The notes beneath the pieces are model-generated. The model made no database searches and was not told the DNA's origin. It saw nothing but the letters and a program-made list of their open reading frames with translations. Shown one piece after another: positions 43,145 to 64,000 of a stretch of DNA of 64,000 bases; within the stretch, counting starts at the first letter, position 1, and each line of letters opens with the position of its first letter. The DNA comes from Escherichia coli (GTDB lineage: Bacteria > Pseudomonadota > Gammaproteobacteria > Enterobacterales > Enterobacteriaceae): NCBI RefSeq assembly GCF_046105845.1, contig NZ_CP151004.1; one strand, written 5' to 3'. Made by a program: the position numbers and the translations under genes.

Positions 43145-46100
43145 TTATTTCCGTACCCGATGTCGGTGCAGCCACATCAGCTTATACGCCGCCGGGATAA
43201 TAAACAGCGACAGCAAAGGCGCGGTGATCATGCCGCCAATCATCGGCGCGGCAATCCGGCTCATCACCTCTGATCCTGCCCCCGTTCCCCACAGAATCGG
43301 CAGCAGACCAGCGATAATCACCGCCACCGTCATCGCTTTCGGGCGCACGCGCAGGACAGCGCCGTGATACAACGCCTCATCCAGCTTCTGCTCGCTGAAT
43401 GTTTGCGGATTATTCAACGACGGCTCGGCCTCTATGGCGTGACGTAAATACATCAGCATCACCACGCCAAATTCGGCGGCGACTCCGGCGAGGGCAATAA
43501 AACCGGTGCCCGTCGCCACGGAAAGATGAAAGCCCATCCACCACAGCAACCAGATGCCGCCCACCAGCGCAAACGGTACGCTGCTGATAATCAGCAACGC
43601 TTCGCCCACCCGACGGAACGCCAGATACAACAGCACGAAGATGATCATCAACGTCATCGGCACCATGAGTTTCAGCTTATGGTTGGCGCGCTCCAGTAGC
43701 TCGAACTGCCCGGAGAATGCCACGCTGGTGCCCGGTTTTAACTGCACTTTTTCAGCTATCGCTTTTTGCAAATCGTGAACCACCGACACCATGTCACGAT
43801 CGCGGGCATCGATATAAATCCAGCTCGTCGGGCGCGCATTCTCGGTTTTCAGCATCGACGGTCCGGTAGAGACTTTAACGTCGGCCACGTCTGCCAGGGT
43901 GATTTGCTGCTTCATCGGCGTCAGGATCGGCAACTGGCGCAGCGCCTGCGGACTATCGCGCCAGCTTTGCGGATAACGCAGATTAATTGGATAACGGGCA
44001 ATCCCTTCCACCGTTTCGCCAACCATCGCCCCGCCCACCGCAGATGTCACAAACAACTGCACATCCGCCACCGTCATACCGTAACGCGCGGCTTTTTCAC
44101 GGTTAATCTCAACGTTGATATAGCGCCCACCTTCCAGACGTTCAGCAAGGGCAGAAGCCACGCCTGGCACCGTTCGTGCCACTTCTTCAATTTGCTCCGC
44201 CATCGCGTCGATATCCGCCAGCACAGTGCCGGAAACTTTAATGCCGATGGGGCTTTTAATGCCAGTCGAGAGCATATCGATACGGTTACGAATTGGCGGC
44301 ACCCACAGATTCGCCAGCCCCGGCAGCCGCACGGTGTTATCCAGTTCCTCGATGATTTTGTCCATCGTCATGCCTGGCCGCCACTGATCTTGTGGCTTAA
44401 GCTGGATGGTCGTTTCTACCATCTCCAGCGGAGCAGAATCGGTGGCGGTTTCCGCTTTCCCGGTTTTGCCAAATACCCGCGCCACTTCAGGTACGCTCAT
44501 AATCAGCTTGTCGGTTTTTTGCAGCATACTCGCCGCCTCTGCTGCGGAAATCCCCGGCAGCGTCGATGGCATATATAACAAGTCGCCTTCATTAATCTGC
44601 GGTAAAAATTCCCCGCCAACTTTATTGAGCGGCCAGAGAATCGTCAGCACCGAAAGCGCTGCCACCAGCAGCGTGGTTTTCGGCCAGTGCAGTACTTTCA
44701 GCAACAGCGGATGATAAACACGAATCAAGAAGCGATTGAGCGGGTTACTGCTTTCTGGCGGAATTTTGCCACGGATCCAGTAACCCATCAGGATAGGGAT
44801 CACTACGATCGCCAGCAGCGCCGCGCCCGCCATCGCATAGGTTTTGGTGAACGCCAACGGGCCAAACAGACGCCCTTCCTGCCCTTCCAGGGTGAAGATC
44901 GGGATAAACGACAGTGTGATAATCAGCAGACTGATAAACAGCGCCGGACCCACTTCAACAGACGCATCGGTAATCACCTGCCAGCGCGTTTTATTATCCA
45001 GCGTGGCGTCAGGATGCTGGTGCTGCCACTCTTCCAGCCGTTTATGCGCATTCTCGATCATGACGATAGCGGCATCGACCATCGCCCCGACGGCAATCGC
45101 AATACCGCCCAGCGACATAATATTGGCGTTCAGTCCCTGAAAGTGCATGACAATAAAAGCAATACACAACCCCAGCGGCAACGAAATAATCGCCACCAGC
45201 GCCGAGCGCACATGCCAGAGAAACAGCGCACAGACTACCGCCACCACAATAAACTCTTCCAGCAACTTGCCGCTGAGGTTGTCGATGGCGCGGTCAATGA
45301 GCTGGCTGCGATCGTATGTTGTAACTATCTCCACGCCTTCCGGCAGACTGCTTTTCAGCGTTTCCAGTTTGTCTTTCACGGCGGCGATCACTTCTCGGGC
45401 GTTTTTGCCGGAGCGCAGGATCACCACCCCGCCCGCCACTTCGCCTTCGCCGTTCAGTTCGGCAATGCCCCGGCGCATCTCCGGGCCAATCTGGACCTTC
45501 GCAACATCGCGCAGATAAACGGGCACGCCATTTTCACTGGCTTTTAAAACGATGTGATTAAAGTCGTCGAGCGTTTGCAGATAGCCGCTGGCGCGCACCA
45601 TATATTCCGCTTCCGCCAGTTCGATCGACGAACCGCCCGCTTCCTGGTTTGAAGCATCCAGCGCGCTTTTTACTTCGGCGAGACTGATACCATATTGCGC
45701 CAGGCGCTGGGGATCGATAACCACCTGATACTCTTTCACCACGCCGCCCACCGACGCCACTTCCGCAACGTCAGGGATGGTTTTTAGCTCATATTTGAGA
45801 AACCAATCCTGCAATGAGCGTAAATCGGCCAGATCGTGCTTACCGCTGCGATCCACCAGTGCATATTCATAGATCCAGCCAACACCCGTGGCATCTGGTC
45901 CCAGCTCGGCGCTGACTCCCGCAGGCAGCTTACCCTGTACCTGGTTGAGGTACTCCAGCACCCGCGAACGCGCCCAGTACGGATCGGTACCATCTTCGAA
46001 AATGACATACACATAAGAGTCGCCAAACTGCGAGAAACCGCGCACAGTCTTCGCGCCAGGCACCGACAACATGGTGGTGGTTAGCGGATAAGTCACCTGA

Positions 46101-46288
46101 TTTTCAACGATTTGCGGTGCCTGACCGGGATAGCTGGTTTTAATAATCACCTGCACATCGGAGAGATCCGGCAGCGCATCCACTGGCGTATTAATGATGG
46201 TCCAGGTGCCCCAGATACTCAGAAACAACGCGCCCATCAGCACCAGAAAACGGTTCGCCACCGAGCGACGAATAATCCATTCAATCAT
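43145..46288 (-). CDS. cusA: Cu(I)/Ag(I) efflux RND transporter CusA
   Basis: 1047 aa RND pump ORF; operon cusCFBA. Confidence 0.95.
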
Positions 46289-46299
46289 TGGTTATTCCC

Positions 46300-47523
46300 T
46301 CAATGCGCATGGGTAGCACTTTCAGAGCGCATCCGCTCCAGTGCGCCAGAAATATTGGCTTCGGAATCAATCAGGAACAGGCCGCTGGAAACCACCTTTT
46401 CACCTTCCGCCAGACCAGAGCGTAACGCGGTGACGCCTTGCGATGCCTGGAAAACGGCAACGCGTTTCGGTACAAAGCGTCCGTCGGCATCAACGGTAAT
46501 CACCCGCTGTTCACTGCCGGTATCAATCAGCGCCTGTGACGGAATGAGCAGCATCGGTTCGCTGGTGGTATTGAGTTGCAACCAGGCGTTCATGCCCGGT
46601 TTTAGCGACTCGTCGGCGTTGTCGACTTCCAGACGCAGCTGCAGCGTGCGGGTCGCGGCATCCACGCCGGGTAGCAGCGTCCATTTGCGAATGGTGAGTG
46701 TTTTATCAGGTCGCGCCGGAACGGTGAGCGTAAACTGCGAGGCATCTTTCACCAGCCAGGCGATGGACTCCGGGATCGCTGCAGTGACCCACACCGGGTC
46801 CATACCCTGAATTTTCGCGACCACATTATCTTTGGCGATATTCATTCCCGCGCGCAGATCAAACGCGGTGATCACGCCATCAATGGGCGCTTTGAGCGTA
46901 AAGCGAGTCTGTATTTTTTGCGTGGCGATCAGGCGGCGAATATCCGCCTCCGGCATTCCCGCCAGTCGCAGTCGCTCAAGAATGCCTTCAGTCTGGGTCG
47001 CCGTACCGCCGGTTTCGCGCAGCAGTAAATACTCACTCTGCGCTTCCACCCAGTCGGGAATGGTCAGGTCGAGAAGCGGTGTGCCCTTTTGTACTTTATC
47101 GCCCACCGTAAGCGGATACACCTTGTCGATAAATCCGGCAGCGCGAGCCTGCACAATGGCATACTGATACTCGTTGTAACTGACATTCGCCGGGAAACTC
47201 TGGGCAAAAGTCAGCGGCCCGCGCGTGACGGTAGCCGTTTTCACCCCCAGATTCTGCGTCTGGGTCGGGTCAATGCGTACACCAGACGCAGAACTCTCTT
47301 CATCGGCATATTTCGGCACCAGATCCATATCCATAAACGGCGATTTACCTGGTTTATCGAACCGCGTATTGGGATACATCGGGTCGTACCAGAATAAGAT
47401 TTTACGTTCTGCGGTCGGCGTTTTTTCTGCGGGCGGTTCAGCCTTTGCAAACCAGGTAAAACCTGCCGCAGAAATAATACCGCCCGCGATCATGCTGCCG
47501 ATAATAAGCGCGATTTTTTTCAT
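46300..47523 (-). CDS. cusB: Cu(I)/Ag(I) efflux membrane fusion protein CusB
   Basis: 407 aa ORF; synteny. Confidence 0.95.
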   Translation of the reverse strand: MKKIALIIGSMIAGGIISAAGFTWFAKAEPPAEKTPTAERKILFWYDPMYPNTRFDKPGKSPFMDMDLVPKYADEESSASGVRIDPTQTQNLGVKTATVTRGPLTFAQSFPANVSYNEYQYAIVQARAAGFIDKVYPLTVGDKVQKGTPLLDLTIPDWVEAQSEYLLLRETGGTATQTEGILERLRLAGMPEADIRRLIATQKIQTRFTLKAPIDGVITAFDLRAGMNIAKDNVVAKIQGMDPVWVTAAIPESIAWLVKDASQFTLTVPARPDKTLTIRKWTLLPGVDAATRTLQLRLEVDNADESLKPGMNAWLQLNTTSEPMLLIPSQALIDTGSEQRVITVDADGRFVPKRVAVFQASQGVTALRSGLAEGEKVVSSGLFLIDSEANISGALERMRSESATHAH

Positions 47524-47538
47524 CTCATTAAACCTGGG

Positions 47539-47871
47539 TTACTGGCTGACTTTAATATCCTGTAATAAAGAAAGGTTGCCCTGCTGGACAAAATTAAACG
47601 CCACTTTGTCGCCGGTTTTAATTTCACTCATTTTCGTCTGCGGGGTGATGGTAAAGCGCATGGTCATCTCCGGCCAGTTCACGGCTACAATCGGATCGTG
47701 ATGGATGGTGATTTTTTTGCTTTCCAGATCAACACCTTTTACCACCCCAGTGGCGCTAATGACCTGTGGTTTTGCTTCGCTCGTGGTTTCATGATGATGT
47801 TCGTTAGCCTGGGCATTAAAGCCAATAATGGTAAACAGACTGAACATTGCGACTTGCAGTGCTTTTTTCAT
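47539..47871 (-). CDS. cusF: Periplasmic copper chaperone CusF
   Basis: 110 aa ORF with signal peptide and His-rich N-terminus. Confidence 0.93.
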   Translation of the reverse strand: MKKALQVAMFSLFTIIGFNAQANEHHHETTSEAKPQVISATGVVKGVDLESKKITIHHDPIVAVNWPEMTMRFTITPQTKMSEIKTGDKVAFNFVQQGNLSLLQDIKVSQ

Positions 47872-47894
47872 TTATTCTCTCCTGGAGTTAAAAA

Positions 47895-49277
47895 TTATTG
47901 CTGCCAACCGCCACCAAGTGCGGCATATAAAGAAATTTCGTTAACCTGACGGGCATAATTCAGGTCAAGTAAGGTTTGTCGGGTTGCAAATAAAGAACGC
48001 TCGGCATCCAGCACTTCCAGATAACTTACCGCGCCGTGCTGATATAATGCCCGCGCCCGTTGCAAAGTAATTTGCAGCGACGCCAGATAACGCTGCTGGG
48101 CGCTGATTTGATCGTTCAGGCTTTGACGTAATGCCAGCGCATCTGCCACTTCTTTAAAGGCGTTCTGGATTTTCTGTTCATAATTCACTACCGACTGCTG
48201 CTGGCGAATTTCGGCGATATCCAGATTGGCCTGGTTGCGTCCGGCATTAAAAATGGGGATCTCAATTTTCGGAATAAAATTCCACATCCCGCTGCTGGCG
48301 TTAAATAATGACGACAGATCGCTGCTGGCGGTTGATATTCCGCTGGTCAGGCTTATAGATGGGAAAAATGCCGCGCGTGCGGCCCCAATATTGGCATTAG
48401 CCGCCATTAACGCGTGTTCAGCTTCCATAATATCCGGGCGCTGCAATAAGATTTGCGACGACAAGCCCGCCGGTAATTTAACGCTTTGCAGGCTGTCGCT
48501 GTTTACTGTCTGCGCTTGCGGCAGCTTGCCGTAGCTTCCCAATAACAGTTGCAATGCATTATTCGCCTGCGCCAGTTCCCCCTGACGTTTAGCGATGTCA
48601 CTGCGGGTACTTTCTATCACCCCGCGAGCCTGTTCCAGCGCCAGAACATTGCTGCTACCGGTCAACAGTTGTTTTTCGACAAACGCATATGACTGCTGAT
48701 AATTACGCAGCGTTTCTTCGGCGATTTGCAATTGCGCATACGCCAGCTGCTGATTGAAATAGCTTTGCGCGACATTAGAAACCAGCAGAATATGCACCGC
48801 GCGCTGGGCTTCCTCCGTGGCTAAATAATTTTGGCGCTCGGCTTCGCTCATGTTCTTTAAGCGACCGAAAAAATCGAGATCAAAGCTGGCGTTAAGGCCA
48901 GTCGAGAACTCCCGCGTCGTGGCTGAATCGCCTTTAAGATTGCCGCTCCAGCTGCCGCTGCCCTCGCCATTGAGCTGTGGGTAGCGGTCGGTATCGGTCA
49001 GACGATATTGCGCCCGCGCTTCCTGCACTTTCAGCGTCGCCATGCGCAAATCCCGGTTATTCACCAGCGCCTCGCTAATCAGCGTCTTCACCTGATTATC
49101 AACAAAAAAGGTGCGCCAGCCCGCGTTCTGGTAGTTATCTGCTGCGTTAACCAGGCCGTTCTGGCTGAGTGAGAACTGCTGCGGCACGGGCATTGCCGGA
49201 CGCTGATAATCCGGTGCCAGTGAACAACCGGTTAGCGCAAGGGCCACACAAAATGGCAGAAGTTTACAAGGAGACAT
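47895..49277 (-). CDS. cusC: Cu(I)/Ag(I) efflux outer membrane factor CusC
   Basis: 460 aa ORF with lipoprotein signal (LTGCSLAP); synteny. Confidence 0.93.
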   Translation of the reverse strand: MSPCKLLPFCVALALTGCSLAPDYQRPAMPVPQQFSLSQNGLVNAADNYQNAGWRTFFVDNQVKTLISEALVNNRDLRMATLKVQEARAQYRLTDTDRYPQLNGEGSGSWSGNLKGDSATTREFSTGLNASFDLDFFGRLKNMSEAERQNYLATEEAQRAVHILLVSNVAQSYFNQQLAYAQLQIAEETLRNYQQSYAFVEKQLLTGSSNVLALEQARGVIESTRSDIAKRQGELAQANNALQLLLGSYGKLPQAQTVNSDSLQSVKLPAGLSSQILLQRPDIMEAEHALMAANANIGAARAAFFPSISLTSGISTASSDLSSLFNASSGMWNFIPKIEIPIFNAGRNQANLDIAEIRQQQSVVNYEQKIQNAFKEVADALALRQSLNDQISAQQRYLASLQITLQRARALYQHGAVSYLEVLDAERSLFATRQTLLDLNYARQVNEISLYAALGGGWQQ

Positions 49278-49336
49278 AGGCTCATAATTTCTGGTGATTT
49301 TATGCTGCCAACTTTACTCGCCAGGCTCTGATTTTC

Positions 49337-49358
49337 CGGTGACAGGAAAATGACAAAA
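49337..49358. promoter_or_regulatory. CusR box in the cusC / cusR divergent promoter region
   Basis: Palindrome aaaatgacaa-aa-ttgtcatttt between cusC and cusR, matching the known CusR operator. Confidence 0.85.
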
Positions 49359-49433
49359 TTGTCATTTTGCCAATAAGCGATTGCCATCTGATCCCGCTAC
49401 TCTAGAATTGCCCGGGCAACATGCGGAGGAAAT

Positions 49434-50117
49434 ATGAAACTGTTGATTGTCGAAGATGAAAAGAAAACCGGAGAATACTTGACCAAAGGGTTAACCGAAG
49501 CCGGTTTTGTGGTCGATTTGGCCGACAATGGGCTGAATGGCTACCATCTGGCGATGACCGGTGATTATGACCTGATAATTCTCGATATTATGCTGCCGGA
49601 CGTGAACGGCTGGGATATCGTGCGCATGTTGCGTTCCGCCAATAAAGGGATGCCGATTCTGTTGCTTACCGCGCTTGGTACCATTGAACATCGCGTCAAG
49701 GGGCTGGAGTTGGGGGCGGATGACTACCTGGTGAAGCCGTTCGCTTTTGCTGAACTGCTGGCGCGGGTGCGCACCCTACTACGGCGCGGAGCGGCGGTGA
49801 TTATCGAAAGTCAGTTTCAGGTTGCCGATCTGATGGTCGATCTCGTCAGCCGCAAAGTCACCCGTAGCGGCACGCGCATCACGTTGACCAGTAAAGAATT
49901 TACTTTGCTGGAGTTTTTCCTCCGCCATCAGGGTGAAGTGCTGCCCCGCTCGCTTATCGCCTCGCAGGTGTGGGACATGAATTTCGACAGCGACACTAAC
50001 GCTATTGATGTGGCGGTGAAGCGGCTGCGCGGCAAAATCGACAATGATTTTGAACCAAAGTTGATTCAGACCGTGCGCGGCGTGGGTTACATGCTTGAGG
50101 TGCCGGATGGTCAGTAA
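49434..50117 (+). CDS. cusR: Copper-responsive response regulator CusR (OmpR family)
   Basis: 227 aa ORF recognised as CusR. Confidence 0.95.
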
Positions 50118-51549
50118 GCCATTTCAGCGCCCGTTTTCGCTGGCAACCCGCCTGACCTTTTTTATCAGCCTGGCCACCATCGCGGCGTTTTTCGCCTTTG
50201 CCTGGATCATGATCCACTCAGTAAAAGTGCATTTTGCCGAGCAGGATATTAATGATTTAAAAGAGATTAGCGCCACTCTTGAACGGGTACTTAATCACCC
50301 TGACGAAACGCAAGCCCAACGCTTAATGACGCTGGAAGATATCGTCAGTGGTTATTCCAATGTGTTGATTTCCCTGGCAGATAGCCACGGTAAAACGGTG
50401 TATCACTCCCCCGGTGCGCCGGATATCCGCGAGTTTACGCGTGACGCCATACCCGATAAAGACACGCGGGGCGGTGAGGTGTATCTCCTTTCCGGCCCGA
50501 CGATTATGATGCCGGGCCACGGTCACGGGCATATGGAACACAGCAACTGGCGGATGATTAGCTTGCCGGTTGGCCCACTAGTGGACGGCAAACCGATTTA
50601 TACGCTCTACATTGCGCTTTCGATCGATTTTCATCTTCATTACATAAATGATTTGATGAATAAACTTGTAATGACCGCATCGATCATTAGCATCCTGATC
50701 GTCTTTATCGTGCTGTTGGCGGTACATAAAGGTCACGCGCCGATCCGCAGCGTCAGCCGTCAAATCCAGAATATCACCTCGAAAGATCTCGACGTTCGCC
50801 TTGACCCGCAGACCGTGCCGATTGAGCTGGAACAGTTGGTACTGTCGTTCAACCATATGATCGAGCGTATTGAGGATGTCTTTACCCGCCAGTCCAATTT
50901 CTCAGCGGATATCGCCCACGAAATTCGTACACCAATTACGAATCTCATCACGCAAACGGAAATCGCCCTCAGCCAGTCGCGCAGCCAGAAGGAGCTGGAA
51001 GATGTGCTCTACTCTAATCTCGAAGAGCTGACGCGAATGGCGAAAATGGTCAGCGATATGCTGTTTCTCGCCCAAGCCGATAACAACCAGTTAATCCCCG
51101 AAAAGAAAATGCTCAACCTGGCGGATGAAGTCGGCAAAGTGTTCGATTTTTTCGAGGCATTAGCGGAAGATCGCGGCGTGGAGTTGCGGTTTGTTGGTGA
51201 CGAATGTCAGGTTGCGGGCGATCCGCTGATGCTGCGTCGGGCGTTAAGCAACCTGCTTTCTAATGCCCTGCGTTATACGCCAACCGGAGAGGCAATTGTA
51301 GTGCGCTGTCAAATGGTCGATCACCAGGTGCAAGTTACCGTCGAAAACCCCGGTACGCCCATTGCGCCCGAACACTTACCGCGATTGTTTGACCGTTTCT
51401 ACCGCGTTGACCCCTCCCGCCAGCGAAAAGGTGAAGGTAGCGGCATTGGGCTGGCGATAGTGAAATCAATTGTTGTCGCGCATAAAGGCACGGTTGCGGT
51501 AACGTCGGATGCGCAGGGGACAAGGTTTGTTATCATATTACCCGCTTAA
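50107..51549 (+). CDS. cusS: Copper-sensing histidine kinase CusS
   Basis: ORF 50095..51549 trimmed to [16 protein letters not shown] (480 aa); overlaps the cusR stop by 11 nt. Confidence 0.93.
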
Positions 51550-51698
51550 TCCTTCAGCAAACGGCAACTTTTATAACCAGTGTAAAAATAACGTGCCGCA
51601 ATAGTCATACCTATTAATGGTAAAAAGCTGTCACAATTCATAAAAAACCTTAATATACGCCACCCTAAACATAACCAGCGTTAATGTAAGGTTTTTGT

Positions 51699-53936
51699 GT
51701 GGACTGGCTTCTTGATGTTTTTGCTACCTGGCTCTACGGCTTAAAAGTAATCGCGATAACGTTAGCGGTCATCATGTTCATCAGCGGGCTGGACGATTTT
51801 TTTATTGATGTCGTCTACTGGGTACGCCGCATTAAACGCAAGTTGAGTGTTTATCGCCGCTACCCGCGAATGAGTTACCGCGAACTGTATAAACCAGATG
51901 AAAAACCGTTAGCGATTATGGTTCCGGCGTGGAATGAAACGGGCGTCATCGGCAATATGGCCGAGCTGGCGGCGACCACGCTCGACTATGAAAACTATCA
52001 TATCTTTGTTGGCACCTACCCCAACGACCCCGATACTCAGCGTGATGTTGATGAAGTGTGCGCTCGCTTCCCAAACGTGCATAAGGTAGTCTGCGCGCGT
52101 CCTGGCCCCACCAGCAAAGCCGACTGCCTGAACAACGTGCTGGACGCCATCACCCAGTTTGAGCGTAGCGCCAATTTCGCTTTTGCTGGTTTTATTCTGC
52201 ATGACGCCGAAGACGTAATTTCACCGATGGAATTGCGTCTGTTCAACTATCTGGTCGAGCGTAAAGATCTGATTCAGATCCCGGTATACCCATTCGAACG
52301 CGAATGGACGCACTTCACCAGCATGACTTACATTGATGAGTTTTCAGAACTGCATGGCAAAGATGTTCCGGTGCGTGAAGCCCTCGCCGGACAGGTGCCC
52401 AGCGCAGGCGTCGGTACTTGTTTCAGCCGCCGCGCCGTGACCGCACTGTTAGCTGACGGTGACGGTATTGCTTTCGACGTGCAGAGTCTTACTGAAGATT
52501 ACGACATTGGTTTCCGCCTGAAAGAAAAAGGTATGACGGAAATTTTTGTCCGTTTTCCGGTGGTGGACGAAGCCAAAGAACGCGAGCAGCGTAAATTTTT
52601 ACAGCACGCACGGACGTCAAACATGATCTGCGTGCGCGAATATTTCCCCGATACCTTTTCGACTGCGGTTCGACAAAAATCTCGCTGGATCATCGGCATT
52701 GTTTTCCAGGGCTTTAAAACCCACAAATGGACCTCCAGCCTGACGCTGAACTACTTTCTCTGGCGCGACCGCAAAGGGGCAATCAGTAACTTTGTCAGCT
52801 TCCTCGCGATGCTGGTGATGATCCAGCTTTTGCTGTTACTGGCGTATGAAAGTTTGTGGCCCGATGCCTGGCATTTCCTTTCTATTTTCAGCGGCAGCGC
52901 ATGGTTAATGACCCTGCTGTGGCTAAACTTTGGTTTGATGGTTAACCGCATCGTGCAGCGGGTGATTTTTGTCACTGGCTACTACGGTCTGACGCAGGGG
53001 CTGCTATCTGTCCTGCGTCTTTTCTGGGGCAACCTGATTAACTTCATGGCCAACTGGCGCGCGTTAAAACAGGTACTTCAACACGGCGATCCACGTCGCG
53101 TCGCGTGGGATAAAACAACGCATGACTTCCCCAGCGTGACTGGCGATACCCGCTCGTTGCGCCCGTTAGGCCAAATTCTGCTGGAAAATCAGGTCATCAC
53201 TGAAGAACAACTCGATACAGCACTGCGTAATCGCGTCGAAGGTCTACGCCTGGGCGGTTCAATGCTGATGCAGGGGCTGATTAGCGCCGAACAGCTGGCA
53301 CAGGCGCTGGCAGAGCAAAACGGCGTGGCGTGGGAGTCGATCGACGCCTGGCAGATCCCTTCATCACTGATTGCCGAAATGCCGGCCTCCGTGGCGCTGC
53401 ATTATGCAGTACTGCCGCTGCGTCTGGAAAATGATGAGTTAATTGTCGGCAGTGAAGATGGTATTGACCCGGTTTCGCTGGCGGCCCTGACGCGTAAAGT
53501 CGGATGCAAAGTGCGTTACGTCATTGTTCTGCGGGGACAAATTGTCACGGGGTTACGCCACTGGTATGCGCGCCGACGCGGTCACGATCCGCGGGCAATG
53601 TTGTACAATGCGGTTCAGCATCAGTGGCTCACGGAACAGCAGGCCGGTGAAATCTGGCGGCAATATGTGCCGCATCAGTTCCTGTTCGCCGAAATACTGA
53701 CCACGCTCGGTCATATTAATCGTTCAGCAATTAACGTGTTGTTATTGCGCCATGAACGTAGTTCTCTGCCGCTCGGCAAGTTTTTGGTCACCGAAGGCGT
53801 TATCAGCCAGGAAACGTTGGATCGCGTCCTGACAATTCAACGCGAATTACAAGTTTCGATGCAATCACTATTACTCAAAGCAGGTTTAAACACAGAACAG
53901 GTTGCGCAACTGGAGTCCGAAAATGAAGGAGAATAA
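51699..53936 (+). CDS. nfrB: Bacteriophage N4 adsorption protein B (inner membrane glycosyltransferase family 2)
   Basis: 745 aa ORF recognised as NfrB; synteny with nfrA. Confidence 0.9.
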   Translation: MDWLLDVFATWLYGLKVIAITLAVIMFISGLDDFFIDVVYWVRRIKRKLSVYRRYPRMSYRELYKPDEKPLAIMVPAWNETGVIGNMAELAATTLDYENYHIFVGTYPNDPDTQRDVDEVCARFPNVHKVVCARPGPTSKADCLNNVLDAITQFERSANFAFAGFILHDAEDVISPMELRLFNYLVERKDLIQIPVYPFEREWTHFTSMTYIDEFSELHGKDVPVREALAGQVPSAGVGTCFSRRAVTALLADGDGIAFDVQSLTEDYDIGFRLKEKGMTEIFVRFPVVDEAKEREQRKFLQHARTSNMICVREYFPDTFSTAVRQKSRWIIGIVFQGFKTHKWTSSLTLNYFLWRDRKGAISNFVSFLAMLVMIQLLLLLAYESLWPDAWHFLSIFSGSAWLMTLLWLNFGLMVNRIVQRVIFVTGYYGLTQGLLSVLRLFWGNLINFMANWRALKQVLQHGDPRRVAWDKTTHDFPSVTGDTRSLRPLGQILLENQVITEEQLDTALRNRVEGLRLGGSMLMQGLISAEQLAQALAEQNGVAWESIDAWQIPSSLIAEMPASVALHYAVLPLRLENDELIVGSEDGIDPVSLAALTRKVGCKVRYVIVLRGQIVTGLRHWYARRRGHDPRAMLYNAVQHQWLTEQQAGEIWRQYVPHQFLFAEILTTLGHINRSAINVLLLRHERSSLPLGKFLVTEGVISQETLDRVLTIQRELQVSMQSLLLKAGLNTEQVAQLESENEGE

Positions 53937-56895
53937 CCTTAATCGCGTCATCGGATGGTCTGGTTTACTGCTGACGTCTTTATTGAGTACCAGCGCACTC
54001 GCAGACAATATCGGCACCAGCGCAGAAGAGCTGGGGCTGAGCGATTATCGCCATTTTGTTATTTATCCCCGTCTCGATAAGGCGCTGAAGGCACAGAAAA
54101 ATAACGACGAAGCAACCGCCATCCGCGAATTTGAATATATACACCAGCAGGTGCCGGATAATATTCCGCTGACTTTATACCTTGCGGAAGCCTATCGCCA
54201 TTTTGGTCATGATGACCGGGCGCGGCTGTTGCTTGAGGATCAACTGAAACGTCACCCAGGAGATGCCCGACTTGAGCGCAGTCTGGCGGCTATTCCAGTT
54301 GAAGTGAAAAGCGTTACGACTGTTGAAGAACTGCTTGCCCAGCAAAAAGCGTGCGACGCTGCGCCGACCCTGCGTTGTCGCAGTGAAGTCGGGCAGAATG
54401 CCCTGCGGCTGGCACAATTACCTGTCGCCAGAGCGCAACTGAACGATGCGACGTTTGCTGCATCGCCGGAAGGAAAAACGCTGCGAACCGATCTGCTGCA
54501 ACGCGCAATCTACCTGAAACAATGGTCCCAGGTAGATACGCTATACAATGAAGCACGCCAGCAGAACACATTAAGCGCGGCAGAACGCCGCCAGTGGTTT
54601 GATGTGCTTCTTGCCGGGCATCTGGACGATCGGATCCTGGCGCTGCAATCACAGGGGATCTTCACCGATCCTCAGTCATATATTACTTACGCGACCGCGC
54701 TGGCTTATCGTGGCGAAAAAGCACGCCTCCAGCATTATCTCATTGAAAATACGCCGCTATTTACCACGGACGCACAAGAGAAAAGTTGGCTCTATCTGTT
54801 ATCTAAATACAGCGGCAACCCCGTTCAGGCGTTGGCGAATTATACGGTACAGTTTGCCGACAACCGCCAGTATGTTGTTGGCGCGACGCTACCGGTGCTG
54901 TTAAAAGAAGGTCTGTACGACGCAGCGCAAAAACTGCTCGCCACCCTCCCCGCCAATGAAATGCTTGAGGAGCGTTATACCGTTAGCGTGGCGACCCGTA
55001 ACAAGGCTGAAGCTCTGCGTCTGGCACGATTGCTGTATCAGCAAGAACCGGCAAATCTTACCCGCCTGGATCAACTGACCTGGCAACTGATGCAGAACGA
55101 GCAGTCACGCGAAGCTGCCGATTTATTGCTGCAACGCTATCCTTTCCAGGGCGATGCGCGTGTCAGCCAGACTTTAATGGCGCGACTGGCGTCTCTGCTG
55201 GAAAGTCATCCTTACCTGGCAACTCCGGCGAAGGTGGCGATTTTATCGAAACCCTTACCGCTGGCGGAGCAACGTCAGTGGCAAAGTCAGTTGCCGGGTA
55301 TTGCAGATAATTGCCCGGCAATAGTTCGCTTGCTGGGCGATATGTCGCCTTCCTACGATGCCGCCGCCTGGAACCGTCTGGCAAAGTGTTATCGGGACAC
55401 GCTACCCGGTGTGGCGTTGTATGCATGGCTTCAGGCCGAACAACGACAACCGAACGCCTGGCAACATCGTGCGGTAGCCTATCAGGCGTATCAGGTTGAG
55501 GACTACGCCACCGCACTGGCGGCCTGGCAGAAAATCAGTCTTCACGACATGAGCAATGAGGATCTGCTTGCTGCTGCCAATACCGCCCAGGCGGCAGGAA
55601 ATGGTGCGGCTCGCGATCGCTGGCTTCAGCAGGCAGAACAACGTGGGCTGGGAAACAATGCCCTCTACTGGTGGCTGCATGCGCAACGTTACATTCCTGG
55701 TCAGCCGGAACTCGCACTGAACGATCTCACGCGCTCAATCAATATTGCGCCTTCTGCCAACGCTTACGTTGCGCGGGCGACAATTTATCGCCAACGTCAT
55801 AATGTCCCGGCGGCGGTGAGTGATTTGCGCGCCGCTCTGGAACTGGAACCGAATAATAGCAACACCCAGGCAGCGCTCGGTTACGCCTTGTGGGATAGCG
55901 GTGATATCGCACAGTCGCGGGAAATGCTCGAACAGGCGCATAAAGGGCTACCGGACGATCCGGCACTTATCCGACAACTGGCCTACGTGAACCAGCGTCT
56001 GGATGACATGCCTGCGACGCAGCACTACGCCCGGCTGGTGATTGATGACATTGATAATCAGGCGCTGATAACCCCACTGACCCCAGAGCAAAATCAGCAA
56101 CGCTTCAATTTCCGCCGTCTGCATGAGGAGGTCGGTCGCCGCTGGACGTTCAGTTTCGATTCTTCCATCGGCTTGCGTTCCGGCGCGATGAGTACCGCTA
56201 ACAATAATGTCGGCGGCGCAGCGCCAGGGAAAAGCTATCGTAGCTACGGGCAACTGGAAGCCGAGTACCGCATCGGACGCAATATGCTGCTGGAAGGCGA
56301 CCTGCTCTCGGTTTACAGCCGTGTATTTGCCGATACCGGAGAAAACGGGGTGATGATGCCGGTGAAAAATCCGATGTCCGGCACCGGTCTGCGCTGGAAG
56401 CCGCTGCGCGATCAGATCTTTTTCCTCGCCGTCGAACAGCAGTTGCCGCTGAACGGGCAAAATGGCGCATCCGATACCATGCTGCGCGCCAGCGCCTCAT
56501 TCTTTAATGGCGGCAAATACAGCGACGAATGGCACCCGAACGGTTCAGGCTGGTTTGCCCAAAACCTGTACCTCGATGCGGCGCAATATGTCCGCCAGGA
56601 TATTCAGGCGTGGACGGCAGATTATCGCGTAAGCTGGCATCAGAAGGTGGCGAACGGACAGACTATTGAGCCTTACGCTCACGTTCAGGACAACGGTTAT
56701 CGTGATAAAGGCACTCAGGGCGCGCAGCTTGGCGGTGTCGGGGTCCGCTGGAATATCTGGACCGGCGAGACGCACTACGACGCCTGGCCGCACAAAGTCA
56801 GTCTCGGCGTCGAATATCAACATACCTTTAAGGCGATTAATCAACGTAACGGAGAGCGCAACAACGCGTTTCTCACCATTGGAGTGCACTGGTAA
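53923..56895 (+). CDS. nfrA: Bacteriophage N4 adsorption protein A (outer membrane, TPR-containing)
   Basis: ORF 53902..56895 trimmed to MKENNLNRVIGWSGLL (990 aa); overlaps the nfrB stop. Confidence 0.9.
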   Translation: MKENNLNRVIGWSGLLLTSLLSTSALADNIGTSAEELGLSDYRHFVIYPRLDKALKAQKNNDEATAIREFEYIHQQVPDNIPLTLYLAEAYRHFGHDDRARLLLEDQLKRHPGDARLERSLAAIPVEVKSVTTVEELLAQQKACDAAPTLRCRSEVGQNALRLAQLPVARAQLNDATFAASPEGKTLRTDLLQRAIYLKQWSQVDTLYNEARQQNTLSAAERRQWFDVLLAGHLDDRILALQSQGIFTDPQSYITYATALAYRGEKARLQHYLIENTPLFTTDAQEKSWLYLLSKYSGNPVQALANYTVQFADNRQYVVGATLPVLLKEGLYDAAQKLLATLPANEMLEERYTVSVATRNKAEALRLARLLYQQEPANLTRLDQLTWQLMQNEQSREAADLLLQRYPFQGDARVSQTLMARLASLLESHPYLATPAKVAILSKPLPLAEQRQWQSQLPGIADNCPAIVRLLGDMSPSYDAAAWNRLAKCYRDTLPGVALYAWLQAEQRQPNAWQHRAVAYQAYQVEDYATALAAWQKISLHDMSNEDLLAAANTAQAAGNGAARDRWLQQAEQRGLGNNALYWWLHAQRYIPGQPELALNDLTRSINIAPSANAYVARATIYRQRHNVPAAVSDLRAALELEPNNSNTQAALGYALWDSGDIAQSREMLEQAHKGLPDDPALIRQLAYVNQRLDDMPATQHYARLVIDDIDNQALITPLTPEQNQQRFNFRRLHEEVGRRWTFSFDSSIGLRSGAMSTANNNVGGAAPGKSYRSYGQLEAEYRIGRNMLLEGDLLSVYSRVFADTGENGVMMPVKNPMSGTGLRWKPLRDQIFFLAVEQQLPLNGQNGASDTMLRASASFFNGGKYSDEWHPNGSGWFAQNLYLDAAQYVRQDIQAWTADYRVSWHQKVANGQTIEPYAHVQDNGYRDKGTQGAQLGGVGVRWNIWTGETHYDAWPHKVSLGVEYQHTFKAINQRNGERNNAFLTIGVHW

Positions 56896-57786
56896 ATGCG
56901 TAAGTTCATTTTCGTATTGCTGACACTGCTTTTGGTCAGCCCTTTTTCCTTTGCGATGAAAGGTATTATCTGGCAACCACAAAACCGTGATAGTCAGGTT
57001 ACCGATACCCAGTGGCAGGGGCTGATGAGTCAGTTACGTTTGCAAGGCTTCGATACCCTGGTTTTGCAATGGACCCGTTACGGCGATGCATTCACCCAGC
57101 CAGAACAGCGCGCGTTATTGTTTAAGCGTGCCGCAGCTGCGCAACAGGCTGGCCTGAAGCTGATTGTCGGGCTGAATGCCGATCCGGAATTTTTTATGCA
57201 CCAGAAACAGTCATCCGCGGCGCTGGAAAGCTATCTTAATCGCCTGCTGGCTGCCGATCTCCAGCAAGCCAGATTATGGAGCGCCGCGCCTGGCGTAACG
57301 CCGGATGGCTGGTACATCAGCGCGGAAATTGACGACCTGAACTGGCGCAGCGAAGCCGCCCGTCAACCTTTGCTGACATGGTTAAACAACGCGCAGCGGT
57401 TGATTAGCGATGTTTCAGCAAAACCGGTTTATATCAGTAGTTTTTTCGCCGGAAACATGTCGCCCGATGGCTATCGCCAACTGCTGGAACACGTTAAAAC
57501 AACCGGCGTTAATGTCTGGGTACAGGATGGCAGCGGCGTGAATAAACTTACCGCTGAACAGCGTGAACGTTATCTACAGGCCAGCGCCGATTGCCAAAGT
57601 TCCGCCCCTGCCAGCGGCATTGTTTATGAACTGTTTGTCGCCGGCAAAGGCAAAACCTTTACAGCGAAACCGAAACCGGATGCAGAGATCGCCTCGCTGT
57701 TAGCGAAACGTTCCTCTTGCGGTAAAGACACGCTCTATTTCTCTCTGCGCTATTTGCCCGTCGCGCACGGCATTCTCGAGTATTAA
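56896..57786 (+). CDS. ybcH: Uncharacterised protein YbcH
   Basis: 296 aa ORF with signal peptide; starts immediately after the nfrA stop. Confidence 0.85.
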   Translation: MRKFIFVLLTLLLVSPFSFAMKGIIWQPQNRDSQVTDTQWQGLMSQLRLQGFDTLVLQWTRYGDAFTQPEQRALLFKRAAAAQQAGLKLIVGLNADPEFFMHQKQSSAALESYLNRLLAADLQQARLWSAAPGVTPDGWYISAEIDDLNWRSEAARQPLLTWLNNAQRLISDVSAKPVYISSFFAGNMSPDGYRQLLEHVKTTGVNVWVQDGSGVNKLTAEQRERYLQASADCQSSAPASGIVYELFVAGKGKTFTAKPKPDAEIASLLAKRSSCGKDTLYFSLRYLPVAHGILEY

Positions 57787-57968
57787 ATCCCCTCCAGGTA
57801 AGTCGGGTACGACCTGACTTACCACTTTCGCTCTCGTCAGAATTCCATCAAGATTAATTGCTAAAAAGCGTGCTAAAGAAAGAAGATCGTTATCGGCGAA
57901 CGGGCCGATCACTCATGCAGGAAGCATAGATCCTTTGAGCGGAGTTTCTGATATCTGAGGAGTGCGAA

Positions 57969-58730
57969 ATGCAATTGAGCAGCAGTGAACCTTGCGTGGT
58001 GATCCTGACCGAAAAAGAGGTAGAGGTAAGCGTCAATAACCATGCTACGTTTACCCTTCCGAAAAACTACCTGGCCGCCTTCGCGTGCAACAATAACGTC
58101 ATTGAACTCTCAACGTTAAATCACGTATTAATCACCCACATCAACCGCAACATCATCAACGATTATCTGTTGTTTTTAAATAAGAACTTAACCTGCGTAA
58201 AGCCCTGGTCGCGGCTGGCTACCCCGGTTATCGCTTGTCATAGCCGTACACCGGAAGTGTTCCGGCTAGCCGCCAACCACAGCAAGCAGCAACCCAGCAA
58301 ACCCTGCGAAGCGGAGTTGACGCGCGCATTGCTTTTTACCGTATTGTCTAACTTTCTTGAGCAATCGCGGTTTATTGCCCTACTGATGTATATCTTACGC
58401 AGCAGCGTCCGCGACAGCGTCTGCCGCATTATTCAAAGCGATATTCAGCATTACTGGAATCTGCGAATTGTCGCCAGTTCGCTATGTTTAAGCCCCAGCC
58501 TGCTCAAAAAGAAATTAAAAAACGAAAATACCAGCTATAGCCAGATTGTCACAGAGTGTCGTATGCGTTACGCCGTACAGATGTTATTGATGGATAACAA
58601 AAATATCACTCAGGTAGCGCAATTATGTGGCTATAGCAGCACGTCGTACTTTATCTCTGTTTTTAAGGCGTTTTACGGCCTGACACCGTTGAATTATCTC
58701 GCCAAACAGCGACAAAAAGTGATGTGGTAA
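57969..58730 (+). CDS. envY: AraC-family porin thermoregulator EnvY
   Basis: 253 aa ORF with C-terminal AraC-type helix-turn-helix; recognised as EnvY. Confidence 0.85.
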   Translation: MQLSSSEPCVVILTEKEVEVSVNNHATFTLPKNYLAAFACNNNVIELSTLNHVLITHINRNIINDYLLFLNKNLTCVKPWSRLATPVIACHSRTPEVFRLAANHSKQQPSKPCEAELTRALLFTVLSNFLEQSRFIALLMYILRSSVRDSVCRIIQSDIQHYWNLRIVASSLCLSPSLLKKKLKNENTSYSQIVTECRMRYAVQMLLMDNKNITQVAQLCGYSSTSYFISVFKAFYGLTPLNYLAKQRQKVMW

Positions 58731-58765
58731 AGGGCAAAGCGGAAACGGATAAGACGGGCATAAAC

Positions 58766-58842
58766 GAAGAAAAAATGGCGCGCCCTGCAGGATTCGAACC
58801 TGCGGCCCACGACTTAGAAGGTCGTTGCTCTATCCAACTGAG
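58766..58842 (-). tRNA. argU: tRNA-Arg (anticodon UCU)
   Basis: Reverse complement reads GCGCCCTTAGCTCAGTTGGATAGAGCAACGACCTTCTAAGTCGTGGGCCGCAGGTTCGAATCCTGCAGGGCGCGCCA, a canonical cloverleaf with encoded CCA and anticodon TCT. Confidence 0.95.
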
Positions 58843-59094
58843 CTAAGGGCGCGTTGATACCGCAATGCGGTGTAATCGCGTGAATTATACGGTCAACCCT
58901 TGCTGAGTCAATGGCTTTTGATCTGGTTGCTGAACAAGTGAACGACCGCGTCTGATTTTCTGATTTATTTCGCTATAGCGGCAAACAAACGCACACCGCT
59001 GCGCGTCTGAATCAAGAAAACCCGTATTTTCATGTATCAAAGTACAATTTCCCGACCTAACGGAAAATTGTCCGATCCAATGAGACTGGTAACT

Positions 59095-59727
59095 ATGAAA
59101 CCAACGTCGGTGATCATTATGGATACTCATCCTATCATCAGAATGTCTATTGAAGTTCTGTTGCAAAAAAACAGTGAATTGCAGATTGTCCTGAAAACGG
59201 ATGATTACCGCATAACCATCGATTATCTCCGAACCCGTCCTGTTGATTTAATCATTATGGATATAGACTTGCCCGGTACAGACGGTTTTACCTTCCTGAA
59301 AAGGATCAAACAAATCCAGAGTGCAGTGAAAGTATTATTTTTATCATCGAAATCAGAATGCTTTTATGCTGGCAGAGCGATACAAGCTGGTGCTAACGGT
59401 TTTGTCAGTAAATGCAATGATCAGAATGATATTTTTCATGCCGTTCAGATGATCCTCTCCGGATACACTTTCTTTCCCAGCGAAACGCTCAACTATATAA
59501 AAAGCAATAAATGTAGCACGAATAGTTCAACGGTCACTGTGCTATCTAATCGTGAAGTGACCATTTTACGTTATCTGGTTAGCGGATTATCAAATAAAGA
59601 AATTGCCGATAAGTTATTACTTAGCAATAAAACAGTTAGCGCGCATAAATCTAATATTTATGGCAAGCTAGGTTTGCATTCAATTGTAGAGCTTATCGAC
59701 TACGCCAAATTATATGAATTAATATAA
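59095..59727 (+). CDS. fimZ: Fimbrial response regulator FimZ (LuxR/NarL family)
   Basis: ORF 59032..59727 trimmed to MKPTSVIIMDTHPII (210 aa). Confidence 0.92.
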   Translation: MKPTSVIIMDTHPIIRMSIEVLLQKNSELQIVLKTDDYRITIDYLRTRPVDLIIMDIDLPGTDGFTFLKRIKQIQSAVKVLFLSSKSECFYAGRAIQAGANGFVSKCNDQNDIFHAVQMILSGYTFFPSETLNYIKSNKCSTNSSTVTVLSNREVTILRYLVSGLSNKEIADKLLLSNKTVSAHKSNIYGKLGLHSIVELIDYAKLYELI

Positions 59728-59729
59728 TA

Positions 59730-60245
59730 TTAATTATAATTGATCATAAATATCGCATCCGCTTTCGCCACACCTGGCTGAACACCGCTGGCTAACGCTC
59801 GATAATTGGCAAAAAAGTTTAGTGTGACATTGCCATTTGCATCTACTTCCTCAGTCGGGCTCGCCTCCCCCAGTGCGAGCCGGGAGCGATCGCTATTACG
59901 TAATTCGATGGCGACGGTTTGTGCCATTGCGGGATCATCCAGAGCCAGCAGGTTGGCATCAGATGCCGGCGTTCCCGTAAATAAAATCGCAACTGAACCC
60001 GGAGGACATCCCTCCAGCCGCAGGCTAAAAGGGACGAGTGCCGTGGTATCGCCAGCGCTCAGTAATTGTGTCGTAGGCCATCTGCCTAAATCTACCGTCT
60101 TATCAATATCCGCTGTGTTTACGGTACAGGAGAAATCAACAACGTTACCGTGCAAATTGATATTAATCGTTCCTAAAGGGTCAGCTGCCCATCCACTGGA
60201 ACTCCACAGTAGCCCGCAGAAACAGCTAAAGAGTACTCTTCTCAT
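59730..60245 (-). CDS. sfmF: Fimbrial minor subunit SfmF
   Basis: ORF 59730..60440 trimmed to the MRRVLFSCFCGLLWSSSGWA signal peptide (171 aa). Confidence 0.85.
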   Translation of the reverse strand: MRRVLFSCFCGLLWSSSGWAADPLGTININLHGNVVDFSCTVNTADIDKTVDLGRWPTTQLLSAGDTTALVPFSLRLEGCPPGSVAILFTGTPASDANLLALDDPAMAQTVAIELRNSDRSRLALGEASPTEEVDANGNVTLNFFANYRALASGVQPGVAKADAIFMINYN

Positions 60246-60255
60246 TCTCCGTACC

Positions 60256-61263
60256 TCATTGATAATCGACGCGTAAATAACCCAGCGCGCTAAACGGCCC
60301 TTCGGTCGGTTTTTGACCGGTAATACTGATAGGCCAGGCGCGAAGTGTGACATTGGCTGCCGCAGCTGCATCCAGACGGAAAGGAATAACGCTATTGAGA
60401 TCGTTAGGCGTGATCGGCGTATCGTTCTGATCGGCGACAATAAAACCTAAATCCTGATTGTCCGACACCATCGCCTGACCAGAAACGGCACTGGCTTCCA
60501 GACGCATTGTTAAATAAGCCTGCGCAGCAACATTCGTACATTTGATCGCAATATTCCTGGTTTGCGGCATGACACCATTAGGTCGATTCCCCGGCCCTGC
60601 CGCACTAAATAACGATGCACCGATATCACCAAAATCAAATTCAACAATTTGCCCGGCATTTAATTCGCAGTTTTGCGGTACTTCAACCCGGCCACCAAAA
60701 CTAATGGTATAAACAGGTGTAACCAACGGATCGTAAGGCGTTGATGTCACATACACGGTAAACATCACCTGTCTGGGGATCTCCACCATGTTAATAAAGG
60801 GCCGAATAACCTTTAAACGAAATATCAAACGAGAATCCATCACCCCGAACGGAAGGTTTTGCGAAACGTTAGGATCTGTTCCCATACGAATATAATTTTG
60901 CGGGGGAAATTGAATATCCATCACGCTATCAACCAGACTCATCGCACCTAATAGATAATCATTTAATTGCATATATTTATAATTATCGATAGTTTCCTGA
61001 ACAATAAAGTTGGTGACATAACTACGGTATGTATAATTCACCAGCGTGCCGGGTGGACAAATTGCTGACACACCTACCCAGCCGGATTTTTCCGGTAAAA
61101 CAACAATCTGCCCTGGCTGGTTATTGGTGCTATTAAAGACATTTGAGAGATCATAGTGTTCATCTTCTGCTACGCCAGTACTATTTGCACAAACAGTAGC
61201 CCAGGATATGTTTGCCAGACACAAACATGCCATTGCCAATAATAATCTGCAGATTATCTTCAT
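60256..61263 (-). CDS. sfmH: Fimbrial adhesin-like subunit SfmH
   Basis: 335 aa ORF with signal peptide; exact start uncertain. Confidence 0.85.
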   Translation of the reverse strand: MKIICRLLLAMACLCLANISWATVCANSTGVAEDEHYDLSNVFNSTNNQPGQIVVLPEKSGWVGVSAICPPGTLVNYTYRSYVTNFIVQETIDNYKYMQLNDYLLGAMSLVDSVMDIQFPPQNYIRMGTDPNVSQNLPFGVMDSRLIFRLKVIRPFINMVEIPRQVMFTVYVTSTPYDPLVTPVYTISFGGRVEVPQNCELNAGQIVEFDFGDIGASLFSAAGPGNRPNGVMPQTRNIAIKCTNVAAQAYLTMRLEASAVSGQAMVSDNQDLGFIVADQNDTPITPNDLNSVIPFRLDAAAAANVTLRAWPISITGQKPTEGPFSALGYLRVDYQ

Positions 61264-61275
61264 TGATAATTTCCT

Positions 61276-63885
61276 TTATGAGCCAGGATGTGTGCAAACT
61301 GCCGAAATAACAGTGACGGCTTGCTGTAAGCTTTGCTTCGGCAATACATAGTGCGCAATGCAGCGTGAGTTCGCGCCGTCTCCCCACTGAACCAGTAATT
61401 CACCAGACAATGGCGCACCACTTAAATAAACTTGCCCGTCATCACCCACCATACTGGTTATTCCGGTACTGTTTTCCCGTACCAGTGATCCAAACGGCAC
61501 CGGTTTTCCGCCCTGGGTAACGGTAATGAGCGCCCGCACGCCTATGCGGGTATCAAAATTGGCACGAACCAACGCGCCTTGCGTCGGCACAACGCTGCTA
61601 ATATTTTTTTCAACATCGATGGAATTCCCCATCGTATTAGTATCAAGCGCGATACGGTTATACCGATAAACCGTGGCATACGGCATCACCGCATAGCCGC
61701 GCCAGTCGGTTAAAATGCCAGTTTGATTTTCAATGCGTACACCGCCTGCGCCAGGCGCTTTAATCAAAACATTGGTATCCCCTAAAGGCTGGCTCAGCGT
61801 TATGCCATTTTCATGCCCGACCACACCGCCAGACAGCTGCCAGTTAACGTCATGTTGATCGCGGTCGTAGTTATACCCGACCCCCAGCGTACCGTAAGCG
61901 GCCTGCCAGTTTGCCGTGGCGCTGCCCGTATACCCATTATTCGAGGTATCGCCCTGGCTTACGTGATAACTCAGGTTGTGGCCTTCCAGTAAGGTCCCAC
62001 CAACGCCTGCCAGCCAGCTATTTTGCCCGTTGCTGTTACGGTTGGCGTTAAAGGAGGCATAAGCGCGATCGAGCGCATTTTCCCGGGTGTAGCGACGTTT
62101 GGTCAAAACATTGAAAGGCACTGAAACATTAAGTCCGACAATACGTTCGTTATCGGGGATCCCTACAGATTCATTCCACGAAAATGAGAGTGAATAACTG
62201 ATGCCAACCCAGCTGCTGGTATACCCCACCTGATACCACGTATCTGAATCCGAAGTATTCCAGTATTTTTGATGGGTACCAGAAATATAAAGCGAGCCAA
62301 AGTCATTAAGTGATTGTGAAATATTTAACTGCAAACGGTCTTTACGGCTAAAGCGTAAATTGTGGTAATTCACGATTATCGGTTCATCGCGATGCTCACC
62401 GTCATAATCGTAATCATATTCGTACCCCTCCATACGACGATACGCAACATCATCAAGGGTATAAAAACCTTGTGTCGAATAGCGGTAACCCATTAACTGA
62501 AAATTGGTGCCGAAAGTGTTCATTGATTTCGCATAGAGGAAGCGAATGGAATCCCCCTCATGACGACTGTCGTCGGCTAACTGACTGCGCGCATGCGTTA
62601 CATCCAGCGACACTGCGCCCCAGCTCCCGAGATTGCGCCCCAGCCCTAATAAAAAGGCGGTGTAATTGGCAGATAATTGCGTCCCGCCGTAGGCAGTAAA
62701 TTCCTGTGGTAAACCGCCGAGTGCCGTGCCCTGAAAAAAGAAAGGCGACGATTGCTGACTATTACCGCTACGAAAATCGCCCGCCGTCAGGTCAAATTTG
62801 AAACGCCCTTCGCGTTGTAAAATTGGCACTGTTGAATACGGAATAGTGTAATTCTGCTGATTACCATCGCGCTCGTCGATGGTGACGTCCAGATCGCCAT
62901 TTGAAGATGTCGGGTGCAAATCTGTAATTTCAAAAGCGCCGGGGGAAACATAGCTTTGATAGATAATAAAACCATTTTGCCGAATCGTTAGCTGGGCCGC
63001 CGTACGGGCAATCCCACGTACCGTTGGGGCAAACCCTTGCTGGCTATCAGGATACATATTATCGGAAGAATAAAGCCGTACACCTCGAAATCCGACGCCA
63101 TCGAAAATATCACTCCCTGTATTACCGTCTCCCATTACCAGTTCACTTTTCAGCGGAATAATGGCGCGCTGTACCCAGGTGCCAATATTATTCCAATGTT
63201 CTGAATGATATCCATTTCCGCGAAAATAGTTCCAGGAACCATTGTTGCGTAAACGCCACGGGCCAATATTAATCCCGCTGAGCTCACTAAAAAAATAGCT
63301 ATCGTTACCATTACCTCTGTTACCGGTGAAATTATAATTCAGGAGTAAAGCAGGAATACCTTCATCCCACTCTTCAGGCGGAATGTAACCGTGAGCGCTA
63401 CTCAACAACGCTATCTGAGGAATAGTGATGTTCAGGCGCATCGCTGCAAAATCAAAGTTAATTGTGGCATCAGGTACAGCTTTCAGTAAATTAATGCATT
63501 TATTATTTTGCTGCTGGGCTAACTCGGGGAATGCACTGCTATTAAGGCCAATTCGTTCAAGGAGTGCCTGATTAAAACAAGGCATTAACCCACCTGATTT
63601 ATCACCTGTATTTACTGTCGTCGATTCAAATACGATATCCTGTGAACCAATGAACTCATCATTACGCCAGAGATCCACCCGATACACACCCGCAGGTTGA
63701 TGATTACCTCTCTCAAAGCGCGATAAATCAGCAACGGATGTGCCATTCTCTAATAAAAATGCCGGGTTGAAATAACTTTCCGCATAGCTTAAAAAGGAGG
63801 GTAAAATGGCAAGAGATGAATAACAAATTCCGGCCAGACACCAGGTATACCTCTGCGGAATATCCGTAGTAGTGGGTATTTTCAT
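61276..63885 (-). CDS. sfmD: Fimbrial outer membrane usher SfmD
   Basis: 869 aa usher-family ORF; synteny sfmC-sfmD-sfmH-sfmF. Confidence 0.9.
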
Positions 63886-63915
63886 AATTAGCTCTGATAT
63901 TGTCAGATGATTCGG

Positions 63916-64000
63916 TTAGTTTAAGTTCACTTCTCTGACCGGGGTTACTGAACCATAATCATTAACGGTCTGAAATTTCAGCTTTCCCTGCACTCCTGAG
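63916..64000 (-). CDS. sfmC: Periplasmic fimbrial chaperone SfmC, 3-prime end only (gene continues beyond the window)
   Basis: Open minus-strand frame entering from the window edge and ending TVNDYGSVTPVREVNLN-stop 30 nt upstream of sfmD. A second open frame ending at 63962 is the alternative, so the frame choice is tentative. Confidence 0.4.
   Translation of the reverse strand, partial: SGVQGKLKFQTVNDYGSVTPVREVNLN

Follow-up and report, generated by a model that had tools for sequence, protein, structure and literature searches.

A single-copy argU attachment site for DLP12-type phages, very probably intact and now unoccupied, in an Escherichia coli genome

Gene content around argU

We analyzed a 64-kb stretch of the E. 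coli contig NZ_CP151004.1 (assembly GCF_046105845.1; 64,000 nucleotides, hereafter the window), in which the tRNA gene argU lies between envY and fimZ. The features of the region are listed in Table 1. The list of open reading frames next to argU contains only envY and fimZ. Every matching RefSeq record carries the envY label, and the name fimZ is also backed by RefSeq annotations.

Table 1. Features of the envY-argU-fimZ region (window coordinates)
Feature	Position	Strand	Basis or comment
ybcH	56896..57786	+	
envY, AraC-family regulator, 253 aa	57969..58730	+	ORF; 99.6% identical to K-12 EnvY
Spacer between envY stop and argU 3' end, 45 bp	58731..58775		envY-side bacterial arm of attB
att core, 47 bp (last 45 nt of argU plus TT)	58774..58820	-	Repeat at both DLP12 ends in MG1655
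argU, tRNA-Arg(UCU), intact	58776..58852	-	ARAGORN; Rfam RF00005, 72.1 bits
Promoter-like site TTGACT-16-TATAAT	58884..58911	-	Consensus scan, 11/12 matches
fimZ (sfmZ), LuxR-family response regulator, 210 aa	59095..59727	+	99.5% identical to K-12 FimZ

All 77 nucleotides of argU are identical to those of K-12 argU, and the predicted tRNA forms a cloverleaf with the anticodon UCU. ARAGORN and Rfam place the 3' CCA end of the gene at 58776. A sequence-only reading of this region had described envY and argU as nearly contiguous, which is correct, and had given a gap of about 35 bp and a tRNA 3' end at 58766. Both figures were off by 10, the actual values being 45 bp and 58776. The 45-bp spacer is collinear with the outer flank of attR in K-12, from which it differs by three SNPs, and it matches the corresponding flank in the lysogenic sister genomes described below without any difference.

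The intergenic region between argU and fimZ comprises 242 bp. The promoter-like site within it sits approximately 32 bp upstream of the argU 5' end and, as judged by pattern match, is the presumed argU promoter. fimZ itself belongs to the chromosome and flanks attB opposite envY. Repeats and RNA elements were also sought around the junction, and nothing beyond the tRNA and short repeats at chance level was detected there.

Two further features of the window lie away from argU. A unit of about 504 bp is duplicated in tandem at positions 36431-37438; the two copies are 98% identical and carry two hokE-type toxin loci, and NZ_CP151026.1 is annotated with the same arrangement. At 51530-51557, between cusS and nfrB, the window is without an island of about 11.5 kb (VgrG/Rhs/ISAs1, H-repeat) and thus shows a second empty polymorphic site. 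In O157:H7 Sakai and many other E. coli, the VgrG/Rhs island is present between nfrB and cusS.

The 47-bp core and its phage counterpart

DLP12 of MG1655 occupies 564755..586056 (RefSeq annotation) and is bounded by an exact direct repeat of 47 bp (the last 45 nt of argU and TT), with one copy in attL and one in attR. The K-12 att sites are credited to Lindsey et al. 1989, as cited in PMC10057817 and PMC6379469. The second of these studies describes DLP12 at argU with a 47-bp attR and scored 74% of 638 genomes of Escherichia and Shigella as carrying it (PMC6379469).

Alignment with K-12 splits the window into two blocks that overlap on this 47-bp repeat. The first block, from fimZ through argU, corresponds to the left side of the K-12 locus, and the second, comprising the core, envY, ybcH, and nfrA, to the right side. 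The breakpoint relative to MG1655 is exactly the att core, as expected for the unoccupied argU site that the sequence-only reading had proposed, and K-12 lacks the junction seen in the window. A single core is bounded by the outer flank of attL toward fimZ and by that of attR toward envY, and it is the only copy in the 64-kb window when up to 3 mismatches are allowed (chance expectation 0.00). Its sequence recurs unchanged in K-12 attL and attR, the sister lysogens, and phage genomes. Furthermore, in occupied relatives (11 loci) the match to the envY-side flank breaks off exactly at 58820 and the match to the fimZ-side flank exactly at 58774.

Using tblastn with IntD, OmpT, AppY, and 12 other DLP12 proteins, we obtained no match in the 64-kb window except for the paralogy between AppY and envY. 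Likewise, blastn with the whole DLP12 interior DNA gave no match in the window. These searches agree with the earlier statement that integrase, phage genes, ompT, and appY are missing here. We therefore regard the region as very probably an intact, single-copy attB for argU-specific lambdoid phages of the DLP12 type that is now unoccupied. Since near-identical relatives are occupied at a site of the same sequence, this attB should be competent for integrase-mediated recombination.

The single protein-level match reflects the relationship of two AraC-family regulators, EnvY, encoded on the chromosome next to attB, and AppY, which is phage-borne and encoded near attP. K-12 AppY and envY (window 58419-58706) show 44% identity over the C-terminal 96 residues.

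The sequence-only reading had also placed appY and ompT between the prophage and envY in K-12. This part has to be revised, since attR separates ompT from envY, so that both genes lie inside the element; carriage of appY on DLP12 at argU has been described (PMC10057817). It follows that the absence of ompT and appY from the window is an automatic result of the empty site. The boundary of a DLP12-type element is hence fixed at the 47-bp argU core, with envY outside and ompT and appY inside as phage cargo. envY was rightly read as native chromosomal DNA, as it is located outside the element and is found beside empty and occupied sites alike.

We reconstructed the attP that the prophage of a sister genome would form on excision, a 2,611-bp sequence containing ompT, the intergenic region, the core, and int. 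This reconstructed attP is contiguous in phage Kati (PP925833.1), with 99.8% identity over 100% of the query, and is found in the phages Turner (PP925837.1), 2G7b (NC_049954.1), and ev243 (NC_049955.1) with 98.8-98.9% identity. All four phages carry the same 47-bp core between int and ompT and thus the partner of the attB in the window. The gene order in 2G7b is tail fibre, methyltransferase, alpha/beta hydrolase, ompT, int, DUF4222, exo, RecT, and gam. Among the integrated forms beside envY, we found two types, the K-12 type with appY and a second type with the hydrolase.

Between the sister genome and an unrelated E. coli, identity reaches 100% across the ompT segment inside the element, against 98.9% in the flank; compared with K-12, the values are 99.7% inside and 98.1% in the flank. 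Since the ompT segment is far more alike between lineages than the flanks are, the element is horizontally mobile. A long residence of the element with co-divergence of its flanks was considered and rejected, as the ompT segment is much more conserved than the flanks. Overall, ompT segments fall into two types that are about 96.6% identical to each other.

A module of alpha/beta hydrolase and ompT at the right end of the Sakai prophage Sp8 (NC_002695.2, 1659644-1662268) is the same as the module beside attP in 2G7b. This suggests that the ompT cargo has moved between lambdoid phages with different attachment sites. ECs_1664, which lies beside ompT at this end of Sp8, is not an envY fragment, and no argU core was found there.

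Based on the behavior of lambdoid tyrosine integrases, we propose that the phage integrase would recombine attP, located between ompT and int, with the 47-bp core in argU, which serves as the crossover region. Integration would set int beside argU, and ompT together with either appY or the alpha/beta hydrolase beside envY, and the phage copy of the core would rebuild the 3' end of the tRNA gene. Excision, or RecA-dependent recombination between the 47-bp repeats, would restore exactly the sequence of the window. Because site-specific recombination is conservative, a site that has never been lysogenized and a precisely cured one would have the same sequence.

Lysogenic relatives and the history of the site

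The window belongs to a rare, deep-branching lineage. Over 25-kb stretches, even the closest of 5,426 complete E. coli genomes reaches only 98.3-98.6% identity, and in a collection of 153 billion gene positions the exact NfrA protein occurs on 5 contigs and the exact SfmD protein on 7. Exact matches to YbcH and EnvY were found on thousands of contigs, with empty and occupied sites both represented.

Two assemblies, GCA_044249515.1 and GCA_018015415.1, represent sister genomes. They differ from window positions 43923..58820 by 1 mismatch in 14,898 bp and from positions 58774..64000 by 0-1 mismatch in 5,227 bp, and both are interrupted exactly at both ends of the core. In GCA_044249515.1, the insert at argU measures 50,255 bp, as calculated from the core positions (contig DBAMWG010000002.1, 505,514-555,815). 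About 34 kb of this prophage were read, on either side of a middle part of about 16 kb (532,428-548,271). The parts read encode an intact integrase, an HTH_17 Xis-like ORF, Dam, exo, RecT, gam, kil, and a cI-like repressor, as well as the full lambda-type head and tail set from Nu1 through J, followed by lom, stf, tfa, a methyltransferase, appY, and ompT. The cI-like repressor and the large terminase subunit are common proteins, and look-ups of both matched other genomes. The ends of the prophage are 98.8-99.2% identical to the DLP12 ends. By sequence comparison, DLP12 would be a decayed derivative of this prophage type, and the sister copy looks undecayed in the parts read.

Three contigs of the lineage, from SRA runs, end at window position 58791, 30 nt into the core. 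This position would be the branch point of a k=31 assembly graph if the core were repeated, and these relatives thus appear to be occupied. One of the runs, ERR13115083, also contains a prophage tape-measure gene. All 3-5 evaluable relatives therefore appear to be lysogens, and their existence indicates that in this lineage the site became polymorphic recently. A slightly more distant relative is represented by the metagenome scaffold MURP18-1 (ERZ28626882, 7.3 kb), which differs by 11 SNPs in 7.2 kb and terminates right at the core's inner edge, at 58820; this hints at an assembly branch caused by an occupied site or a mixed population.

The sequence-only reading had left open whether the site is in a pre-integration or a cleanly excised state. 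This ambiguity is fair, as the two states look identical at the site itself, and the relatives provide some further guidance. One explanation, which we consider moderately plausible, is that the genome is a cured lysogen that has recently lost a 50.3-kb ompT/appY phage, either by Int/Xis or by RecA across the repeats. Consistent with this, every evaluable relative looks occupied (two NCBI assemblies and three assemblies of SRA runs), and the flanks are virtually identical between the window and the lysogens. The sister prophage possesses the intact integrase and the excisionase-like ORF noted above, and a single non-lysogen among 3-5 lysogens on an unrooted tree more often reflects loss. However, the number of relatives may be overstated, since some SRA runs may duplicate NCBI isolates, leaving perhaps about three that are independent. 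The few SNPs also yield a polytomy in which the window is not nested among the lysogens. Of the 14 sites that vary over about 20 kb, none has a derived allele common to the window and just a subset of the lysogens, and the sole SNP on the envY side that distinguishes the window from the sisters (51075) reflects a derived allele unique to the window. Moreover, precise excision is scarless, so the site offers no positive evidence of a loss.

Alternatively, the empty site could be ancestral, and the relatives could have gained the phage after their split from the genome of the window; we see this as a real possibility, though a less probable one. Empty sites are common in the species (see below), and phages that carry ompT and integrate at argU are represented among sequenced phage genomes. 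The complete identity of the ompT segment between the sister and an unrelated E. coli, whose flank is only 98.9% identical, also speaks for a horizontal arrival of the element that is recent compared with the age of the lineage. Against an ancestral empty site, the window would have to branch outside all known relatives, of which 0 of 3-5 are empty. On balance, we lean slightly toward a recent loss over a site that was never lysogenized.

A third explanation is an artefact, in which the assembly of a lysogen joined fimZ, the core, and envY across the 47-bp repeat, or in which a minority population with an excised phage was assembled. The 47-bp repeat is a known breakpoint of short-read assemblers, and contigs of the relatives do break there. 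However, assemblers usually break at such repeats and do not skip 50 kb, and the 64 kb of the window are uninterrupted and collinear with thousands of genomes with an empty site. Spontaneous excision is also far too rare for excised molecules to dominate read coverage. We consider an artefact highly improbable.

Returning to the loss of a prophage, there is about an even chance that the window comes from a newly cured strain of this rare, deep-branching lineage, all other sampled members of which are lysogens of the 50.3-kb ompT/appY phage. If it does, the cured and lysogenic strains would represent a natural near-isogenic pair, with 0-1 SNP per 5-15 kb of flank, for the study of lysogenic conversion by OmpT and AppY. 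Such a pair would also suit the study of argU-phage excision in the wild.

Prevalence, ompT status, and comparison with known systems

Using a balanced query of 800 bp across the junction, at least 80% of which had to be covered in one place, we found envY, argU, and fimZ contiguous in 2,526 of 5,426 complete E. coli genomes (46.6%). A 1,301-bp junction query detected 2,499 genomes. The empty argU site is thus an ordinary presence/absence polymorphism, correctly noticed but well known and unremarkable.

According to the sequence-only reading, the empty site implies an OmpT-negative strain. Such a phenotype is likely but not implied, as Sakai combines an empty site with an ompT gene on Sp8. ompT is present in 3,095 of the 5,426 complete genomes, in full length in 3,079. 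Because 2,526 and 3,079 add up to more than 5,426, at least 179 complete genomes must have both an empty site and ompT. In Sakai, ompT (ECs_1663) lies beside minE, at the right-hand end of the lambda-like prophage Sp8 and about 1 Mb away from the empty argU site, and strain 7.1_Anguil shows the same ompT context. With a query that joined the junction to ompT, and by sampling the resulting ranking evenly, we obtained 27 empty-site chromosomes. A second match, to ompT, was missing in 22 of these and present in five, four of which were O157:H7-type. An empty site therefore goes along with an ompT-less chromosome in roughly 80% of cases, and in more outside O157, which is a likelihood and not an implication.

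Within the 64-kb window, tblastn with OmpT detected no omptin gene, and on the basis of the population sample the strain is likely to be OmpT-negative. It could still be OmpT-positive if ompT were located elsewhere, on another prophage or on a plasmid. The Sakai arrangement by minE, the at least 179 genomes with both features, the 5 of 27 sampled chromosomes with a second ompT place, and the occurrence of omptin genes on plasmids all allow for this. Nevertheless, four of the five exceptions belong to the O157:H7 type whereas the window is not O157, the ompT seen in its relatives is the copy on the argU prophage, and most of the sampled chromosomes (22/27) are without ompT, so that we regard an OmpT-positive strain as unlikely. 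The empty argU site is a handy presence/absence typing marker but no proof of a protease phenotype, with O157:H7 as the main exception.

The layout of the window closely resembles that of O157:H7 Sakai (NC_002695.2; argU at 657183..657259, envY at 657305..658066). Sakai has the same order of sfmZ/fimZ, argU, a 45-bp gap, envY, ybcH, and nfrA, with one core and no prophage. It differs from the window by a few SNPs in the spacer and in being OmpT-positive through Sp8, and the identity between the two is 97.5-98.4%.

In Shigella and enteroinvasive E. coli (EIEC), as in the window, ompT is missing together with the DLP12 element (Nakata et al. 1993, reviewed in PMC5723341), and the review poses the same question for these bacteria, namely whether DLP12 was never hosted or was excised (PMC5723341). 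Compared with complete E. coli genomes, we detected no IS insertions that interrupt window positions 1-25000 or 39001-64000. Shigella/EIEC is unlikely as the type of the window, since its relatives carry ompT and the compared stretches are free of IS insertions.

Together with the temperate phages Kati, Turner, 2G7b (genus Nesevirus), and ev243, the window provides the two partners of integration. The phages contain the phage-side sites, and the window contains the bacterial-side site without phage DNA. The attL and attR of K-12 DLP12 have the identical 47-bp core, and their outer flanks are collinear with the window at 98.1-99.2% identity. In K-12, however, the site is occupied by a decayed element of 21.3 kb with intD, IS3, IS5, nmpC, appY, and ompT, whereas the window corresponds to the empty recombined product.
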